DNA of 64,000 bases. Origin: an uncultured Chromatiaceae bacterium. GTDB lineage: Bacteria > Pseudomonadota > Gammaproteobacteria > DRLM01. A model generated the notes under the pieces. The model saw only the letters and a list, made by a program, of their open reading frames with translations. It was not told where the DNA came from and ran no database searches. The stretch is taken from contig CALZJG010000122.1 in NCBI GenBank assembly GCA_945787555.1, positions 5,674 through 69,673 of the forward strand. Reading direction: 5' to 3'. Each line of letters starts with the position of its first letter. Positions within the stretch are counted from its first letter, which is position 1. Made by a program: the position numbers and the translations under genes. Shown here piece by piece: positions 3,872-30,878 of this stretch.

Positions 3872-5632
3872 TTATTTGAGATTAAAGCGCTGTGATACGT
3901 CGAGCAGGAACTGATTTTCCGGCGAGGCATCCACAGCCTGTTCCCAGACTTGCCGCGCCGCCTGCTGATCGCCCATCACCCATAACACCTCAATTAGATG
4001 CGCGGCGATTTCCGCGTCCGGACTCGCCTCCAAAGCGCGGCGCAGATAATGCACCGCCTCTTGGTGATTGCCCAGGCGGTATTGCGCCCAACCCATGCTG
4101 TCCAATATATAGTGACTGTCGGGCTCCAACTCCAAAGCGCGCTTGATATAGCCGATGGCCTCCTCGTAGCGCCGCGTGCGATCGACCAAAGTGTAGCCCA
4201 AGGCGTTCAACGCCTCGGCATTCTCCGGCTCGCGCCGCACGATGTGCTTCAGGTCGGCCTCCATGATGTCGAGCCTATCCATCTTCTCGGCCACCATGGC
4301 ACGAGAGTAGAGCAAGTCGGTATTGTCGGGCATTTCCTCCAACCCGGCACTGAAAATGTCGAAGGCCTCTTGGAGACGGTCGGCGTCACGCAGTATCTGG
4401 CCTTCCACCAGAAAGAGGCGCAACACTTGCGCCGCGCCGCGCGTCTCGATAGTGCGCAAATGACCCCGCGCCAACTCCACATCACCCTCCACCGCCATCA
4501 ACGCCGCCGCGCGCAGCTGGGCCTCCAAATAGTTCTCACCACGGTCGACATTGCCGTACCACTTGATGGCGGCGGCATTGTCGTGGCGCTGCTCCTCAGC
4601 GATGCGTCCCAAGTAATAGCTACTCTCGGCGGTATAGCCCCGTCCGCCGCGATTGAGCCGCAAGAGATACTGCTCCGCCGCATCGACCTTCTCTAACTGC
4701 AGAGACAACACACCCAGCGCGAACAACACATCGGGCTCATCGGGCGTGCGTTTGTTGACCGTATTGAACTGTTCGTAGGCCTGCTCATACTGCTTGTTGT
4801 CTACCAACAAGCGCGCGTAGGCGACGCGCAATGCATTATCCTTGGGCAATTGCTTGACCCCGCCCGCGAGGTAGCCCATCGCGTCCACCGATTTGCCGCG
4901 CATGGTCATGATCCTGGCGCGCTGAATGATGGCGTCGCCACGCTTGGGCTGTAGCGTCGTAACCTGGGTGATGGCGCGCTCGGCTTCCTCCATGTCACCG
5001 GCACGCAGCGCCAAATGGCTATAGGCGAATAACGCCCCGGGATCGCCAGCGCGGCTAGCGATCAACTTCTGCATCACTTGTAAAGCAGCCTGCTTGTCTT
5101 GTTGCCGGCCCAACAGACCGGCGATCAGCATGAAGCCGTCTTCGCCCACGCCACCGCTCTGTTCCAGCAAGGTCTCCAGCTCATGCTGGGCGGCGTCAAG
5201 TTCGCCATTGCGTATATACAGCGCCGAGACGACCTGACGAGCCTCCATGTTGGAAGGCGCTAATTCCACCCACAACTTGGCCGCCTCCAGGGCCTTCTTA
5301 TTGTCATGGGCATAGACGGCCACGCGCGCCGCACGCTCTACCAAGCGCACGTCGCGAGTTTCGCGACCCAATTGCAGGTATTGTTGCACCGCCAAATCAT
5401 ATTGGCCGCGCTGCAGGGCCACCTCGCCCACCAGCACGCCGTAAAGGATATCGGGGGTCAACTCCAGCGCGGGCAGATCCAACGGCGCCGGCGGCTCGGC
5501 CCCGTGAGGCTGGGCCTCGGCCAAATCCAAGCGCTGCGCCGGCGGCGTCGCACACGCCCCCAACAGAACCGCCGCAATCAACATCCCATAGCGCAGGGGC
5601 GATCTATTCATAAGTGTGCTCTCCAGCAACAA
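3872..5632 (-). CDS. TPR-repeat lipoprotein (PA4667-like)
   Basis: 586 aa; lipobox LLGAC; many 34-residue Ala/Leu/Tyr-rich tetratricopeptide repeats; conserved position upstream of lolB. Confidence 0.8.
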   Translation of the reverse strand: MLLESTLMNRSPLRYGMLIAAVLLGACATPPAQRLDLAEAQPHGAEPPAPLDLPALELTPDILYGVLVGEVALQRGQYDLAVQQYLQLGRETRDVRLVERAARVAVYAHDNKKALEAAKLWVELAPSNMEARQVVSALYIRNGELDAAQHELETLLEQSGGVGEDGFMLIAGLLGRQQDKQAALQVMQKLIASRAGDPGALFAYSHLALRAGDMEEAERAITQVTTLQPKRGDAIIQRARIMTMRGKSVDAMGYLAGGVKQLPKDNALRVAYARLLVDNKQYEQAYEQFNTVNKRTPDEPDVLFALGVLSLQLEKVDAAEQYLLRLNRGGRGYTAESSYYLGRIAEEQRHDNAAAIKWYGNVDRGENYLEAQLRAAALMAVEGDVELARGHLRTIETRGAAQVLRLFLVEGQILRDADRLQEAFDIFSAGLEEMPDNTDLLYSRAMVAEKMDRLDIMEADLKHIVRREPENAEALNALGYTLVDRTRRYEEAIGYIKRALELEPDSHYILDSMGWAQYRLGNHQEAVHYLRRALEASPDAEIAAHLIEVLWVMGDQQAARQVWEQAVDASPENQFLLDVSQRFNLK

Positions 5633-5775
5633 CGTTCACACAAGGTATAAGTCCCTCATGCTATTGACAAGATTTTTCCACAAGTTTCTGCAGCCACCGT
5701 CGACGCCTCTTTTCTAAACTTGCCAGGGCGTCGATAATCAAACAGAATTGATGTGTTCTGTGTCGGCTGAAACCT

Positions 5776-7038
5776 ATGCCTCTTTTAGCATTTGGCATCA
5801 ATCATAAAACGGCCCCCGTCACCATCCGGGAACGGGTTTCCTTTGCGCCCGAGACAATTTCCATTGCGCTCAAGGAGTTAACCTCCCAGCCCGGGATCAA
5901 CGAGGCGGCCATCCTATCCACCTGCAATCGCACGGAAATCGTCTGTTGCGTGGAAGACACGCAGAATTCCAGCGTGGTGGATTGGTTCCAGCACTATCAC
6001 GATCTCAAGCCCGACGAGGTCGAACCCTATATTTATTTCCACCCCGACCAATTCGCCGTGCGCCATCTGCTGCGCGTAGCCTCAGGCCTGGACTCGCTGA
6101 TCCTGGGCGAGCCCCAAATTCTCGGCCAGATGAAGGAAGCCTACACTAAGGCGCTCAATGCCGGCACCGTCGGCACCCTGCTGGGACGCTTGTTTCAGCA
6201 CACTTTCGCCGCCGCCAAGCAGGTCCGCACCGATACTGCCATCGGCTCCAGCCCGGTCTCGGTGGCCTTCGCCGCAGTCAGCCTGGCCAAGCAAATCTTC
6301 AGCAACTTCAGCGAACATACGGCACTGCTGATCGGCGCCGGCGAGACCGTCGAACTGGCTGCCCGCCACCTGCACGAGAACGGCATCGGCCGCATGATCA
6401 TCGCCAACCGCACCGTGGAAAAGGCGCATGCCGTGGCCGGCGAATTCAATGCCTACGCCATCGGCCTCCCGGAAATGCCCAACCATCTACCGGAGGCGGA
6501 TATTGTCATCTCCTCCACCGCCAGCCAGCTGCCCATCCTCGGCAAGGGTGCGATCGAACGCGCGATCAAGGCACGCAAACATCGCCCCATTTTAATGGTG
6601 GACATCGCTGTGCCGCGCGACATCGAGCCGGAAGCCGGCGAGCTGGAAGATGTCTACTTATACACGGTCGACGACTTGCAAGACATCATCCAAGAAGGGC
6701 TGCGCAGTCGCCAGGAGGCAGCCAAGCAAGCCGAGGAGCTCATCGACAACCAAGTCATCCACTTCATGGGTTGGCTGCGCTCACTGGATGCGGTAGCCAC
6801 CATCCGCGCCTACCGCGAGCAAGCCGAGCTGGTGCGCGATGCGGAGCTGGAGAAGGCCCGTCGACTGCTCAGCCGCGGCGCCTCCGCGGATGAGGTCATG
6901 GCCAAATTGGCGCGCGCGCTCACCAACAAATTGATCCACGCCCCCAGCACTCACATGCGTCAGGCGGGCTTCGAAGGCCGCAGCGACGCGCTGGAAATCG
7001 CCCGCGAATTGTTCGATCTTAAAGACCCCCATTCGTAA
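5776..7038 (+). CDS. hemA: glutamyl-tRNA reductase
   Basis: 420 aa; [17 protein letters not shown]-terminus, catalytic Cys in STCNRTE, NADPH-binding [13 protein letters not shown]. Confidence 0.92.
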
Positions 7039-20616: not shown

Positions 20617-22320
20617 TCAAAACAAGAAATACCGCTGCGCCAGTGGCAACTCACTGGCCGGCTCGCATTGCAACAACACGCCGTCGGCGCGCACTTCATA
20701 AGTTTGGGCATCGACTTCCATCCGCGGCTGGTAATGATTATGAATCAAATCGGCCTTGCGTACCGCGCGCGTGCCGCGCACTTCGACCAGACGTTTTTGC
20801 AAACCCAGCGCCTCGCCCACACCGGCCTGCAGGGCGGCTTGCGAAACAAAGGTCACGCTGGTCGCCGTGAGCGCTGCACCATAGGCGCCGAACATATTGC
20901 GATAGTGTACCGGCTGTGGTGTGGGTATCGAGGCATTCGGATCACCCATGGGAGCGGCGGCGATCATGCCACCCTTGATGATCAGACTGGGCTTGGCGCC
21001 AAAGAAGGCCGGCTTCCACAACACGATGTCGGCCAACTTGCCCGCTTCGATCGAGCCTACTTCGTGGGCGATGCCGTGAGTAATGGCGGGATTGATGGTG
21101 TACTTGGCCACATAACGCTTGGCGCGATAATTATCGTGCTGCGCAGTGTCTTCCGCCAATGCGCCGCGTTGCGTTTTCATTTTATGCGCGGTTTGCCAGG
21201 TGCGTGTGATGACCTCACCGACGCGCCCCATGGCCTGTGAATCAGAAGCAATCATACTGAAGGCACCGAGATCGTGGAGAAGGTCCTCGGCGGCAATGGT
21301 CTCGCGACGGATGCGCGATTCGGCGAAGGCCACGTCCTCGGCGATGTTGGGATCGAGATGATGACAGACCATCAACATGTCGAGGTGCTCATCGACCGTG
21401 TTGATGGTGTAAGGCCGCGTGGGATTGGTGGACGAGGGCAGCACATTGGCCTCGCCACAGGCCTTAATAATATCCGGCGCGTGACCGCCGCCGGCGCCCT
21501 CAGTGTGATAAGTGTGAATGGCGCGCCCCTTGAACGCGGCAAGCGTATCTTCGACGAAGCCCGATTCGTTGAGCGTGTCGGTATGGATGGCCACTTGCAC
21601 GTCGTATTGCTCGGCGACGTTCAAGCAATTGTCAATGGCCGCCGGCGTGGTACCCCAATCCTCGTGTAATTTTAAACCCATCGCCCCCGCGACGACTTGC
21701 TCCTCCAACGAGGCGGGCAGACTGGCGTTGCCTTTGCCGAGAAAACCCAGATTCATGGGCAAGCCTTCCGCCGCCTGCAGCATGCGCTGGATATGCCATG
21801 GCCCCGGCGTGCAGGTGGTGGCGTTGGTGCCCGCCGCCGGCCCGGTGCCGCCGCCCAACATGGTGGTGACGCCGCTCATCAGCGCCTCCTCCACTTGTTG
21901 CGGGCAGATGAAATGGATATGCGCGTCGAGACCGCCGGCAGTGGCGATCAAGCCTTCACCGGCGATCACCTCGGTGCCCGCGCCGATGACGATGTTCACA
22001 CCCGGCTGGATATCGGGGTTGCCCGCCTTGCCGATGGCGGCGATGCGCCCATGCTTGATGCCGATGTCGGCTTTAACCACACCCCAGTGATCGAGGATCA
22101 GCGCATTGGTGATCACCGTATCTGCGACCTCTTGTGAGGCGCGCTGACTCTGCCCCATGCCATCGCGGATGACCTTGCCACCACCGAATTTCACCTCTTC
22201 ACCATAAACGGTGTGATCTTGTTCCACCGCGATCCATAAGGCAGTATCGCCGAGCCTAATCCGATCACCCACCGTCGGTCCGTACATTTCCGCATAAGCA
22301 CGCCGCGTGATCTTGCTCAT
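20617..22320 (-). CDS. ureC: urease alpha subunit
   Basis: 567 aa; active-site MVCHHLD, Ni-ligand histidines, HEDWG motif. Confidence 0.95.
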
Positions 22321-23418: not shown

Positions 23419-24273
23419 TCATGTCGCCCATATACGCGGCGCGCAGACGGGCCGTTGCAACACCGCGGGCCGCAGCACAGACCACGCCTTTTCGAAACAC
23501 TGCCGCGCCTCTTCGGCATGATCCCCCAGATAGCGGCACACCACCACACCGTCCAACAGCGTGACGCTGAACAAGCCCACCTCGAACCGCGCCGCCTCGC
23601 GCACTAGCTCAATGCACTCGGCTTCATTCGTGACGCAAAGCAGGGTACCGCTTACCGAGTGACCCGCCAACCCCCACGGCGCCGTGAGCACGGCGCCATT
23701 CTGCTCATAACGTGCACGCTCAATATAAAGCGGCAAACCGTCCCGCCATAACTCGAATCGCTGGCGCACGCCGCCTTGCTGAAATTTCTCGCCTGAACCC
23801 GGTCTGCCCAAGCACATTATTTCCCAGCCTAAGAAACCTGCCCCGGGCGCCAGCTCAACCAGTGTATTCAATTCAGCGCGCGCGCCGTCATAGACGATGG
23901 TTTCTTGCGGCAGCCACTCCAGCGCCGCGCCCGACGCCACGCGCAAGTGCTGCGTCTGCCGTGCACCCGCCCCCCCACTGCGATAAAACTTTCCGGCCGC
24001 CGGTGTCGTGAGCAGGGCGTGCGCGCCTTGAGCCACCTCGATATCGATCGACAATTCATCGCCGCCCACCACGCCGCCGGGCGGATGTAGCACATATACA
24101 TGACAGACGTTTTCGCCTTCGGGATAGAACGGCCGCTGCACCCGCAGTGGTCCATGATGGGAGCGATGCGCCAACACAGAACGGCTGGCGCGCGCTGCAA
24201 AGACCAGGCTCAAGCCGGCCTGCCATCCTGCGGCATGTGGGTGTTCACTTGCTTTTGCATGGGCGTGCAGCAT
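23419..24273 (-). CDS. ureD: urease accessory protein UreD/UreH
   Basis: 284 aa; UreD family (LHPPGGVVGGDELSIDIEV, GWEIMCLGR). Confidence 0.85.
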   Translation of the reverse strand: MLHAHAKASEHPHAAGWQAGLSLVFAARASRSVLAHRSHHGPLRVQRPFYPEGENVCHVYVLHPPGGVVGGDELSIDIEVAQGAHALLTTPAAGKFYRSGGAGARQTQHLRVASGAALEWLPQETIVYDGARAELNTLVELAPGAGFLGWEIMCLGRPGSGEKFQQGGVRQRFELWRDGLPLYIERARYEQNGAVLTAPWGLAGHSVSGTLLCVTNEAECIELVREAARFEVGLFSVTLLDGVVVCRYLGDHAEEARQCFEKAWSVLRPAVLQRPVCAPRIWAT

Positions 24274-24698: not shown

Positions 24699-25064
24699 CT
24701 AGGTGTTGTCCTTGATAGTGGTAGTCGCGCCATTGGTCATAACTGACTTAATGCCATCGTCACGGGATTGCGCCGTTGCGTACATTTGACCAGTGCCTAT
24801 GATCTGATGGTTTGCCGCTTTCAAATTAAAATAGTGCTTACCATTTGAAGACTCCTTTTTGTCGTAGCGATCATCCGCGGCACAGTTTTTCTGCACAGAG
24901 GCGATACCGTTCTCGGCAGATCCTTTAGACTTATAGAGTTCACTCTTTAAGATGGTCTCCGCATTGCCAGCCTTGAGAACGAACCGGAACTGACCATCAC
25001 TGCTATTACTCAACTCGTACCAACCTGCCATATCTTTCTCCTTGGTTGTGAAGGTGATTGACAC
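24699..25064 (-). CDS. YegP/DUF1508 (UPF0339) family protein, two tandem ~50-aa repeats
   Basis: Internal duplication GQFRFVLKAGNAETILKSELYKSKGSAENGIASV / GKHYFNLKAANHQIIGTGQMYATAQSRDDGIKSV typical of YegP. Lies in a ~48% GC block within a ~63% GC genome. Confidence 0.65.
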   Translation of the reverse strand: MSITFTTKEKDMAGWYELSNSSDGQFRFVLKAGNAETILKSELYKSKGSAENGIASVQKNCAADDRYDKKESSNGKHYFNLKAANHQIIGTGQMYATAQSRDDGIKSVMTNGATTTIKDNT

Positions 25065-27959: not shown

Positions 27960-28036
27960 GCGCCCGTAGCTCAGCTGGATAGAGTGCTGCCCTCCGAAGG
28001 CAGAGGTCGTGGGTTCGAATCCCGCCGGGCGCGCCA
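27960..28036 (+). tRNA. tRNA-Arg (anticodon CCG)
   Basis: GCGCCCGTAGCTCAGCTGGATAGAGTGCTGCCCTCCGAAGGCAGAGGTCGTGGGTTCGAATCCCGCCGGGCGCGCCA; anticodon loop CTGCC-CTCCGAA-GGCAG; near-identical to E. coli tRNA-Arg(CCG). Confidence 0.9.
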
Positions 28037-28658
28037 TCTCACATCACTATGCCGCCTCGGTGACACGCTTAAACGTACAGATCCACGCCGCGCGCCGATA
28101 TAGCCTCGTCCGTCGCACGGGCCCCGCGTCGTTCACTACGGCGCCGCTCACGCTGATTGCGGGTATCGAGCAGCACCGATGCGGCGCCCAGACGGCGCTC
28201 GTCGCAACGCCGCCGATCACCGCGCCGGCGCTCGGCCGCGGCCGAGTGCTCGGTTCGAGAGGGTGGTGACTGCGGGCGACGACCCGGCCCGATCTCGGGG
28301 TAAGGCGTCAGCGGCGCGACCGCATCGGTGACGCCGACGGCTCGGTTGGCATTGTGCAAACTGCGCACGCCCGCATCGTCACGGGCGAGAGGGTAGATGC
28401 TCATGGACGACATCACTCGCGAAAAAACGGCCCGGCCGCGACGACGACCGGATAAGCCATGGTAGACCAAGGTCCCGTCCCGCGGCAACGCCACGTCCAA
28501 GCCGGGCCGGGCTCGGCTCGGCTCGGCGGACAGAGCCAGGCAGAACTGCGTACAATGACTGACTTTTGCCGGCGCGCCCTTCAAGGGCGCACGCAACGAT
28601 CCGATAAACCTGATGGACCGATACCCGTCCGCTGAGAGACGACGCACGGAGACGCCTC

Positions 28659-29810
28659 ATGAAACGCCCCTCCTTTCTACGCCATGGCGCCCTGGCCCTG
28701 TGTTTGAGCGCCGGCTTGGTTGGCTGCGCGAGCATCGGCGGCGATCGTGACCCGCTCGACACCAGCGGCGGAAAATTCTACGCGCCGCTCTCTGCCGCTG
28801 ACTTTGCCCGTCTGACGGAACCGGAGCAGATTCGCTATTTCACTGACAACGTCTATCTAGCCGCCACCGGCAACACCAGCGTACGCGACCAGCGCGCCCA
28901 GGCTGCGCGCGAAGCATTGAAGCAATTGCGGGTCCAGCTTGACCAACCCAGTTTCGTGCGCTTTTGGAGCGGGGTGGACGGGGAATTTTTCGGCCGGGTG
29001 AATGCCGCCTTCGAAATACCGGACTACACCCGCCCGCAAGCGAAAGTCGACGGTCGCCGCGTGCGCACCGCCTATAATTTGGGCGCACGGCACTTGGCGG
29101 TGCTGGACAGCCAGCTCGGTGAGGCTCGCCGCCTCGCCATGCGACATTACATAGAACTGGCGGCCAAGAACGATCCCGGCGCCTGCTTCGGTTTTCACAA
29201 AGCCTATAAAGACTACCCCGATCCGCGGGTTGGCGACCCCACCCTGACCTGGGAGCTGGCGGAAGGCAAGCCGTTCCGCAAATCAATGTGGACCGGCTCG
29301 GCGGAGACTCTGCATCAAGGCCGACCGACCCAGATCGCCATTCCCGCCGAAGTCGTGATGGGTTGCCGGCGCATCCTGCATCCGCCCGCGGACATCAGCG
29401 CTGGATTGGTACACGAGATGGAGCAATTCTTTACGGATATCAATTTGATCGGCGGCTTCGACCTGGCCGGCTATAAACGACGCAAGACGCAGTGGCAGGA
29501 TGCATTGCGCGCTCAGGCACTGGAGGCGGCGCAACGCATGGGCCGCGACCGCATCATGATCATCAACGTGGTCAACGTTTATCAGGTCTTCCCGCCCGAA
29601 ATGGACTACGAATATGAGCTGGCCGTCACCGAGGGCACACTGCCGGAATTGGTGGCCTCGGGCATCCTCGAGGAAGAACAGGCCTTCAAGATCGAACAGC
29701 GGGTGATAGAGCGGCGTTTGATGCTCACCGGCATCCGTGTCACACCGGAACGCACCCCGCTGGCCTTTCTGCAACTGACCGCTGAAAAGGTCACCACCAG
29801 CGGCAAATAA
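28659..29810 (+). CDS. hypothetical lipoprotein, 383 aa, no recognisable domain
   Basis: Signal peptide with lipobox LVGC-AS; no catalytic motif recognised by eye. Candidate TACAAT -10 at ~28552 and GC hairpin in the 5-prime UTR. Confidence 0.6.
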   Translation: MKRPSFLRHGALALCLSAGLVGCASIGGDRDPLDTSGGKFYAPLSAADFARLTEPEQIRYFTDNVYLAATGNTSVRDQRAQAAREALKQLRVQLDQPSFVRFWSGVDGEFFGRVNAAFEIPDYTRPQAKVDGRRVRTAYNLGARHLAVLDSQLGEARRLAMRHYIELAAKNDPGACFGFHKAYKDYPDPRVGDPTLTWELAEGKPFRKSMWTGSAETLHQGRPTQIAIPAEVVMGCRRILHPPADISAGLVHEMEQFFTDINLIGGFDLAGYKRRKTQWQDALRAQALEAAQRMGRDRIMIINVVNVYQVFPPEMDYEYELAVTEGTLPELVASGILEEEQAFKIEQRVIERRLMLTGIRVTPERTPLAFLQLTAEKVTTSGK

Positions 29811-29887
29811 ATCCGGCGCGCGGCAGCGCTAAAAGATACTCGGCCCTCGACGATACTATTATTAAGTCATACGCCGAGGCTGCCATA

Positions 29888-30106
29888 TGAGTTTCGCCAT
29901 GCTAATTATGCTGCAAATCGCCGTTATAGGCGCCGTGGTGGGGTTGCTGGGCTTATTCGCCTACGACGACGCCTGCACCACCCAACAACGCGATGAGGAA
30001 GAGTTGGCGGAAGATTCCGACGACGCCATGCTGGCTTAACCAGCCGCTAGCGATCAGCCAGCGATCAGCCGTACATCCTTCGGCACACGCACATCCACCG
30101 CGATAG
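29888..30106 (+). CDS. small hypothetical membrane protein (72 aa); not in the supplied ORF track
   Basis: ATG at 29888 preceded by GAGG 9 nt upstream; N-terminal TM helix MLIMLQIAVIGAVVGLLGLFAY. The 3-prime end overlaps the convergent EEP gene by 52 nt. Confidence 0.3.
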
Positions 30107-30878
30107 GCAGGTGGTCTGACAGGGCGTGGTTCAAAACCTGCAAGTTATTCACATGGATACTGGGCGTGACCAGGATATGGTCAATATTGCGATAGGGACG
30201 CCAGCTAGGATAGGTGTGGAGGGTCTGCTCCGGCTCGCACAAGTCGGTGCTTTTGAGCAGCGCATCCATCTCACGGCTTTGCGGCTGGCAATTGAAATCC
30301 CCCATCACCACCGCGTGCCGATAATCGGCGATCAGCTCACCCAGGAAATCGAATTGGCGCTGACGCGCGCGCCGCCCCAGCGCCAAGTGCACCAGCAACA
30401 ACACCAGCGGTTGTTCATGGTGTCCATAGCGGACCATCATAGCGCCACGCCCTGGAATCAAGCCCGGCAAGCGATGTTGCGAAATCATGGTAGGTCGCAC
30501 ACGACTCAGTAGACCATTGCTGTGTTGCGCGAGCTTGCCCAGATCACGATTGGTTTGGTGATACCAAAAAGGGAAATGGCCGCGTCGCGCCAAGTATTCC
30601 ACTTGATTGACATAGTAACTACGCAAACTGCCTGCATCGGCCTCTTGTACGGCGACGATGTCGTAGTGCGAGGCCAGCCGCCCGATACGATCGAGGTTAT
30701 CGAAGCTCGATGGATGCGGCAGCACATGCTTCCAACTTCGTGTGAAGTAGTGGTGCGGTCGCACCGACGCCACCCCCGCCTGGATATTGTAACTGAGCAA
30801 GCGCAGTCGGGTCTTGATGCTGCCACCCTCACTGGGATGATCATCGCCCGCCACAGTCGCCTGGGTTAATGCGCTCAT
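30054..30878 (-). CDS. endonuclease/exonuclease/phosphatase (EEP) family protein
   Basis: 274 aa; EEP signatures LLSYNIQ, VAVQEAD, VVMGDFN, SDHLPI; start overlaps the alsS stop (ATGA). Confidence 0.75.
   Translation of the reverse strand: MSALTQATVAGDDHPSEGGSIKTRLRLLSYNIQAGVASVRPHHYFTRSWKHVLPHPSSFDNLDRIGRLASHYDIVAVQEADAGSLRSYYVNQVEYLARRGHFPFWYHQTNRDLGKLAQHSNGLLSRVRPTMISQHRLPGLIPGRGAMMVRYGHHEQPLVLLLVHLALGRRARQRQFDFLGELIADYRHAVVMGDFNCQPQSREMDALLKSTDLCEPEQTLHTYPSWRPYRNIDHILVTPSIHVNNLQVLNHALSDHLPIAVDVRVPKDVRLIAG

Follow-up and report, generated by a model that had tools for sequence, protein, structure and literature searches.

The gene located at 28659..29810 (+ strand) in a 64,000-nucleotide stretch of contig CALZJG010000122.1 from an uncultured Chromatiaceae bacterium (this whole stretch is hereafter called the window) encodes a predicted Lol-type lipoprotein of 383 amino acids (aa) with an undescribed domain. 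The protein is very probably a true lipoprotein and the representative of an undescribed family. The functional lead comes solely from distant paralogues of its N-terminal domain (N-domain), since these are always encoded beside a pair formed by an outer membrane channel and an adaptor.

The N-terminus of the protein, MKRPSFLRHGALALCLSAGLVG-C23-ASIGG, displays a positive n-region (K2, R3, R8), then a hydrophobic core and then the lipobox L-V-G-C23, and therefore carries the N-terminal sequence features of the lipoprotein class (positive n-region, h-region, lipobox [LVI][ASTVI][GAS]C). The type II signal peptide (28659..28727, +) ends in this lipobox, the cysteine codon being located at 28725-28727. 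The Lol-type lipobox recognised in a preliminary description of this DNA is indeed canonical, with LVG preceding C23 and an alanine at position +2. A lipobox-like tetrapeptide (slightly relaxed pattern) is found in the same alignment column in all 35 aligned members of the family, where the residue at +2 is A in 25 cases, S in 8, T in 1 and G in 1, and never D.

The coding sequence, whose span includes the stop codon, starts with an ATG located 6 nt downstream of a Shine-Dalgarno-like GGAGA (28648..28652, +) read from the sequence. It is a real gene, not a chance or high-GC artefact open reading frame (ORF), as indicated by its 39 homologous clusters, the 63 invariant columns of the 35-sequence alignment, the lipobox found in 35 members out of 35 and the low ratio of nonsynonymous to synonymous divergence (dN/dS). 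The gene is under purifying selection, the Nei-Gojobori dN/dS being 0.10-0.16 for pairs with unsaturated dS (0.40-0.44). The comparison of the window with a 99%-identical metagenome-assembled genome (MAG; GCA_947259805.1) is uninformative in this respect because it involves 4 differences only, and more distant pairs were taken for this calculation. The lipoprotein evolves faster than the adjoining EEP-family protein (30054-30878), with ~52-56% identity versus 70-78% in the same genomes.

The family is real but very narrow. Indeed, an exhaustive phmmer search among 1.84 billion representatives clustered at 50% identity retrieved only 8 family representatives. Among 5.8 billion proteins, the 39 homologous clusters (43-58% identity) come from uncultured Gammaproteobacteria, their hosts being MAGs labelled uncultured Gammaproteobacteria or Chromatiaceae. 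The members originate from a biocathode, from groundwater of Hainich and New Zealand, from soil and from a hydrothermal vent. No source names any of them otherwise than 'hypothetical protein', the papers on Tenderia and on the biocathode do not mention the lipoprotein, and tblastn searches of plasmid and phage collections gave no match. The term orphan, initially applied to this protein, is thus appropriate for its annotation, as it belongs to no named family, but not for its homologues, which form 39 clusters.

Comparisons with known families and folds were all negative. The Pfam scan of the lipoprotein gave nothing significant (best match Nbs1_C, E 0.23), and NCBIfam, PADLOC and PHROGs gave 0 matches each. 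When 43 homologues were scanned one by one against Pfam, no recurring family was found, only scattered noise (CARD, DUF6894). Sequence-profile searches of the Protein Data Bank (PDB) with two alignments, A1 and A3, returned 0 matches at E<=10, and the best Foldseek match in the PDB has an E value of 0.39, so that no relative of solved structure emerged. Furthermore, neither the lipoprotein nor one of its paralogues (P0049) matches the adaptor (TIGR01730) or TolC profiles. A scan of the lipoprotein with regular expressions found no HExxH, GxSxG, P-loop or CxxC motif. The preliminary description had reported a long soluble part without recognisable domain and without HExxH, GxSxG or nucleotide-binding loop; both statements hold, the former since none of the searches of libraries and folds gave a positive result, the latter according to the motif scan. 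The confident remote-homology match that it regarded as a possible refutation of its proposal emerged from none of the library, PDB-profile and Foldseek-versus-PDB searches.

The mature protein can be divided into three parts. A tether (aa ~24-40; 28728..28778, +), weakly conserved (26% mean identity), connects the folded part to the lipid anchor; residues 19-35 have a pLDDT <50 in the AlphaFold2 model of the full protein. It is followed by the helical N-domain (aa ~41-262; 28779..29444, +), which displays 57% mean identity and is common to stand-alone secreted paralogues, and by a C-terminal region (aa ~263-383; 29445..29807, +), which displays 53% identity, is specific to the lipoprotein subfamily and is not found in the paralogues. 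The full-length model has a pLDDT of 69, the N-domain being confidently predicted and the C-terminal half weakly; in the C-terminal region, pLDDT ranges from 35 to 75, with three segments <50. Modelling of aa 35-246 with a 43-sequence alignment gave a pLDDT of 91.5 and a pTM of 0.88, and the modelled N-domain consists mostly of helices with two small beta-hairpins.

The conserved motifs of the N-domain include YFTDNVY and WxGVDxEFFGRVNA, and the residues kept in both subfamilies include Y60, D63, Y66, W103, D107, F110, N115, Y139, R157, Y183 and W198. The mature protein contains only two cysteines, C176 (29184-29186) and C236 (29364-29366), which are invariant in both subfamilies. As these are two invariant cysteines in a periplasmic protein, they probably form a structural disulfide.

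A profile search identified secreted paralogues (P0044-P0053) of 253-317 aa, which share 25-35% identity with the lipoprotein, are limited to the N-domain and have signal sequences of the signal peptidase I type; one of them was labelled Sulfuricellaceae by one source. In all the informative loci (L017/L018/L019, L020, L023/L024 and L029), the gene order is the same: a gene encoding a periplasmic thioredoxin-like protein (CPFC), a TolC-like outer membrane efflux protein (OEP) gene, the gene of a short, truncated periplasmic adaptor of the RND type and the paralogue gene. Four of these loci provide full contexts, in which the four-gene block is located at 3157-6909 in L017, 3429-6942 in L020, 3429-6858 in L023 and 2521-5980 in L029; in L023, the TolC-like gene spans 3936-5249 and the adaptor gene 5246-6004. 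Furthermore, in L015, the fragment that precedes P0044 corresponds to the C-terminus of the same adaptor. The OEP matches Pfam PF02321. The adaptor (~250 aa) matches TIGR01730 with 133 bits (cut-off 94.9), over model positions 16-244 of 322 only. The ATG of the paralogue overlaps the stop codon of the adaptor gene as ATGA (4-nt overlap), and this translational coupling suggests that the N-domain paralogue works stoichiometrically with the adaptor and the channel. No pump gene (RND, ABC or MFS) was found directly beside the adaptor gene in this operon. A set encoding MlaE-STAS, an ABC ATPase and a PqiB-like protein follows the block in two contexts and is not found in L017; genes encoding BrkB/YihY and UPF0114 membrane proteins are located upstream of the block.

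These data lead to the tentative proposal, favoured here although somewhat short of an even chance, that the lipoprotein is an outer membrane-tethered, disulfide-stabilised and non-catalytic periplasmic protein of the envelope with a binding or accessory role. According to this proposal, the protein would be exported by Sec, lipid-modified at Cys23 and then sorted by Lol, most likely to the inner leaflet of the outer membrane. This destination is favoured because the residue at +2 is never Asp, a rule established in Escherichia coli that may not transfer to this lineage. The short flexible tether would keep the two-domain soluble part in the periplasm, where the compact helical N-domain would be stabilised by the putative C176-C236 disulfide. 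The invariant Y60, D63, Y66, W103, D107, N115, Y139, R157, Y183 and W198 are read as a putative surface for binding, in preference to any known catalytic site, and the domain would act as a non-catalytic accessory or binding component at or near an assembly of outer membrane channel and adaptor. This accessory role is proposed because the gene of the distant secreted subfamily is coupled to a truncated adaptor gene that follows TolC-like and thioredoxin-like genes. In the lineage of the window, a lipid anchor would hold the protein at the outer membrane in place of an operon-coupled assembly.

A connection with a TolC/adaptor system in the window organism itself is more doubtful. Caution is needed because the 64-kb window holds no gene akin to the TolC-like and adaptor genes of the paralogue operon and because the C-terminal region, 120 aa whose conservation matches that of the N-domain, is poorly modelled and not accounted for by this proposal. 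Several other points weigh against the accessory role. Location inside an operon of outer membrane factor and adaptor genes is a feature of the paralogues (L015, L017, L020, L023, L029) and not of the lipoprotein subfamily, which was never found beside a TolC-like or adaptor gene in the loci examined. With only 25-35% identity, the function of the paralogues may have diverged from that of the lipoprotein. The conserved Asp, Tyr and Trp residues may just as well form an active site that has escaped recognition.

Among the closest known systems are tethered outer membrane lipoproteins with a globular or helical periplasmic domain, such as LpoA, LpoB, RcsF and NlpE. The paralogues also resemble CusF of the CusCFBA system, in that they are secreted soluble proteins encoded with an outer membrane factor and an adaptor, the paralogue being translationally coupled to the latter. 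CusF is a small metallochaperone that has a beta-barrel fold and uses Met, His and Trp as ligands. By contrast, the protein considered in this comparison is ~230 aa long and helical, with a putative disulfide and no metal-binding motif. Furthermore, unlike CusCFBA, the paralogue operon has no RND, ABC or MFS pump beside the adaptor, and the lipoprotein of the window is encoded outside any such operon.

The protein may have the envelope or signalling role evoked in the preliminary description, but the relevant partners are others than those which it had noticed: the divergent gene described below, a membrane protein that relatives encode beside it, and the TolC-like channel and adaptor to which the paralogues are linked. 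Between the lipoprotein gene and a tRNA gene, and divergent from the former, lies a gene (28069..28404, -) encoding an Arg-rich protein of ~111 aa without signal peptide; 254 bp (28405-28658) separate it from the lipoprotein gene. Its conserved features are an N-terminal PRDDxGxxRLxxxN, a core ERRRGDRR...VLLDTRxxxERR and a C-terminal GVDLYV. The MAG annotation gives it 192 aa (P0054, 28069-28647), apparently placing its 5' end too far out in comparison with homologues beginning at MxIxPIPRDD. According to tblastn and alignment, this gene is adjacent and divergent in the window, L002-L010, L026 and L028, and a pattern scan of metagenomes yielded only 3 short loci arranged in this way. The gene also occurs in L011, where the lipoprotein has diverged more than any other in alignment A1 (46% identity) and the remaining neighbours differ completely (spermidine synthase, CDGSH protein, AmtB/P-II); the pairing of the two genes therefore looks like more than inertia. 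The Arg-rich protein has no match in Pfam or PHROGs, and a word-indexed search retrieved only the protein itself. In L002-L010 and L026, the Arg-rich gene is followed by the gene of a 160-182-aa protein with two N-terminal transmembrane (TM) helices and a C-domain, probably periplasmic, carrying a conserved Cys pair (- strand; 6471-6953 in L002 and 6814-7362 in L003, with equivalents in L004-L010 and L026).

This neighbourhood speaks for a first alternative, in which the lipoprotein would sense envelope signals or stress like RcsF or NlpE and report to the cytoplasm via a small membrane protein, the Arg-rich protein being a nucleic-acid-binding regulator of the locus. Such a role is nonetheless unlikely. 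No DNA-binding or signalling domain can be recognised in the Arg-rich protein, the 2-TM protein gene is absent from the window and L011, and the Pfam scan reveals no likeness of the lipoprotein to RcsF or NlpE. In the P0040 loci (43% identity), DusA lies upstream on the same strand and no Arg-rich ORF stood out in the intervening 300 nt, which were not searched by tblastn. Moreover, no kinase or sigma/anti-sigma gene is located nearby, and the intergenic regions of 10 loci contain no sigma-E, sigma-54 or sigma-70 consensus.

Within the window, a sigma-70-like match (CGGACA-18-TACAAT; 28527..28556, +), a weak consensus match only, is located ~100 nt 5' of the start codon of the lipoprotein gene; 2 such sites were found versus 0.8 expected from shuffles. 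A conserved motif, CCGATAAGGAAAT (CCGATAAACCTGAT in the window, 28601-28614), lies ~50-70 nt 5' of the lipoprotein start in the window and in the aligned L002, L004, L005 and L007, and could be a 5'-UTR or operator element. On the other strand, a terminator-like GC-rich hairpin followed by TTTTTT (28427-28452, -) lies ~20 nt 5' of the likely start of the Arg-rich gene. It could be a leader, an attenuator or a chance match; 2 hairpins of this type were found versus 1.4 expected from shuffles.

According to a second alternative, somewhat less probable still, the lipoprotein would belong to an unrecognised class of periplasmic enzymes with a glycan as substrate (for instance peptidoglycan, LPS or exopolysaccharide), on which it would act through the invariant Asp, Tyr and Trp of its helical-hairpin fold. 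The best structural matches of the N-domain are (alpha/alpha)6-barrel glycoside hydrolases (GH9 and others) and TPR-like repeats, with which it superposes as helical hairpins over ~90-110 residues. The (alpha/alpha)6-barrel enzymes are typified by a full barrel of 12 helices that carries a conserved pair of catalytic acids, which was not found in the N-domain.

Coming back to the accessory role, its confirmation would mean that the trans-envelope machines of the TolC/adaptor type have a further component, either soluble or lipid-anchored, and would bring a new, confidently predicted helical fold without PDB neighbour. In the libraries searched, no description seems to exist of the family, of the N-domain fold (relative to the PDB) or of either gene linkage. 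A bolder and rather improbable extension can be envisaged, in which the N-domain would define an undescribed class of periplasmic subunits for pump-less pairs of TolC-like channel and truncated adaptor and, separately, the lipoprotein, the cytoplasmic Arg-rich protein and, in most relatives, the 2-TM protein would form a new envelope module of an uncultured gammaproteobacterial clade. If the accessory role holds, the lipoprotein and Arg-rich protein genes would also stand out as a distinct pair in this clade from biocathode and groundwater. More practically, the lipoprotein is a target for structural genomics and could found a new entry in Pfam or among the DUFs. Many hypothetical lipoproteins are restricted to a single lineage, and nothing mechanistically surprising has been found so far.

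Downstream of the lipoprotein gene, the order of the genes is constant within the clade: EEP-family, TPP enzyme, DsbA, cNMP-binding protein, EngB-like GTPase and PolA. The preliminary description had recommended a check of neighbourhood conservation, and the lipoprotein gene does belong to the same core-gene synteny (EEP, TPP enzyme, DsbA, EngB, PolA) in relatives. As these genes are unrelated housekeeping genes, this constant order looks like phylogenetic inertia.

A 50-aa ORF encoding a single, strongly hydrophobic TM helix with an acidic tail (29887..30039, +) starts 77 nt after the lipoprotein stop codon, the position initially reported, but it is an optional neighbour, and the idea of a system formed with the lipoprotein is not supported. 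Indeed, it is present only in the window and in L001, L002/L006 and L010, and in four lineages the 47-65 nt that separate the lipoprotein and EEP genes leave no space for it; this patchy conservation led to its rejection as an obligate partner. It has no match in Pfam, NCBIfam, PADLOC or PHROGs. Its helix and juxtamembrane sequence (VGLLGLFAYDD) is reminiscent of the second TM helix (VGIIAFFAWYQD) in the 160-aa protein, with non-significant E values of 4-5 (comparison with L005 6809-6925 and L007 4092-4187). A lipoprotein gene adjoining a small single-TM ORF also recalls phage spanins. The o-spanins are much smaller than 383 aa. Here, the lipoprotein is too large, the gene order is reversed, there is neither PHROGs match nor phage context, and most relatives lack the TM ORF.

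The tRNA-Arg(CCG) gene (27960..28036, +) is located 622 nt before the lipoprotein gene, outside the conserved unit, and synteny between the window and its relatives breaks at this gene and an M16 peptidase gene. The description of the locus as tRNA-adjacent is thus correct in that a tRNA gene is nearby; it misses the conserved minus-strand gene located in between, and 10 related loci have no tRNA within the fetched stretches. Since the latter lack any tRNA and since the GC content is unremarkable, without compositional anomaly, this proximity is incidental. It is very improbable, and largely refuted, that the gene is cargo of a tRNA-associated island, the lipoprotein having a function as toxin or in immunity or defence and the small TM ORF encoding its partner: the nearby tRNA, the narrow distribution of the family and the faster divergence of the lipoprotein (~55% identity) than of the EEP gene would fit it, but the core synteny is the same in relatives, the ORFs inspected on either side of it (24-35 kb) revealed no integrase, PADLOC, PHROGs, plasmid and phage matches are all nil, the small ORF is dispensable and dN/dS is low. 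The toxin or immunity idea of the preliminary description, like that of a mobile island, is not supported, on the same grounds.

Two minor observations concern the region upstream of the tRNA gene. A tandem DUF1508 protein of 121 aa (24699-25064, -; E 3.5e-43) is encoded in this variable region. An Rfam match to 5_ureB_sRNA (21885-22171, +; 94.8 bits) lies 1.2 kb from an ORF (23419-24273, -) that is UreD-like judging from its translation only; instead of indicating a real sRNA, this match may stem from a conserved coding sequence for urease, read on its antisense strand.
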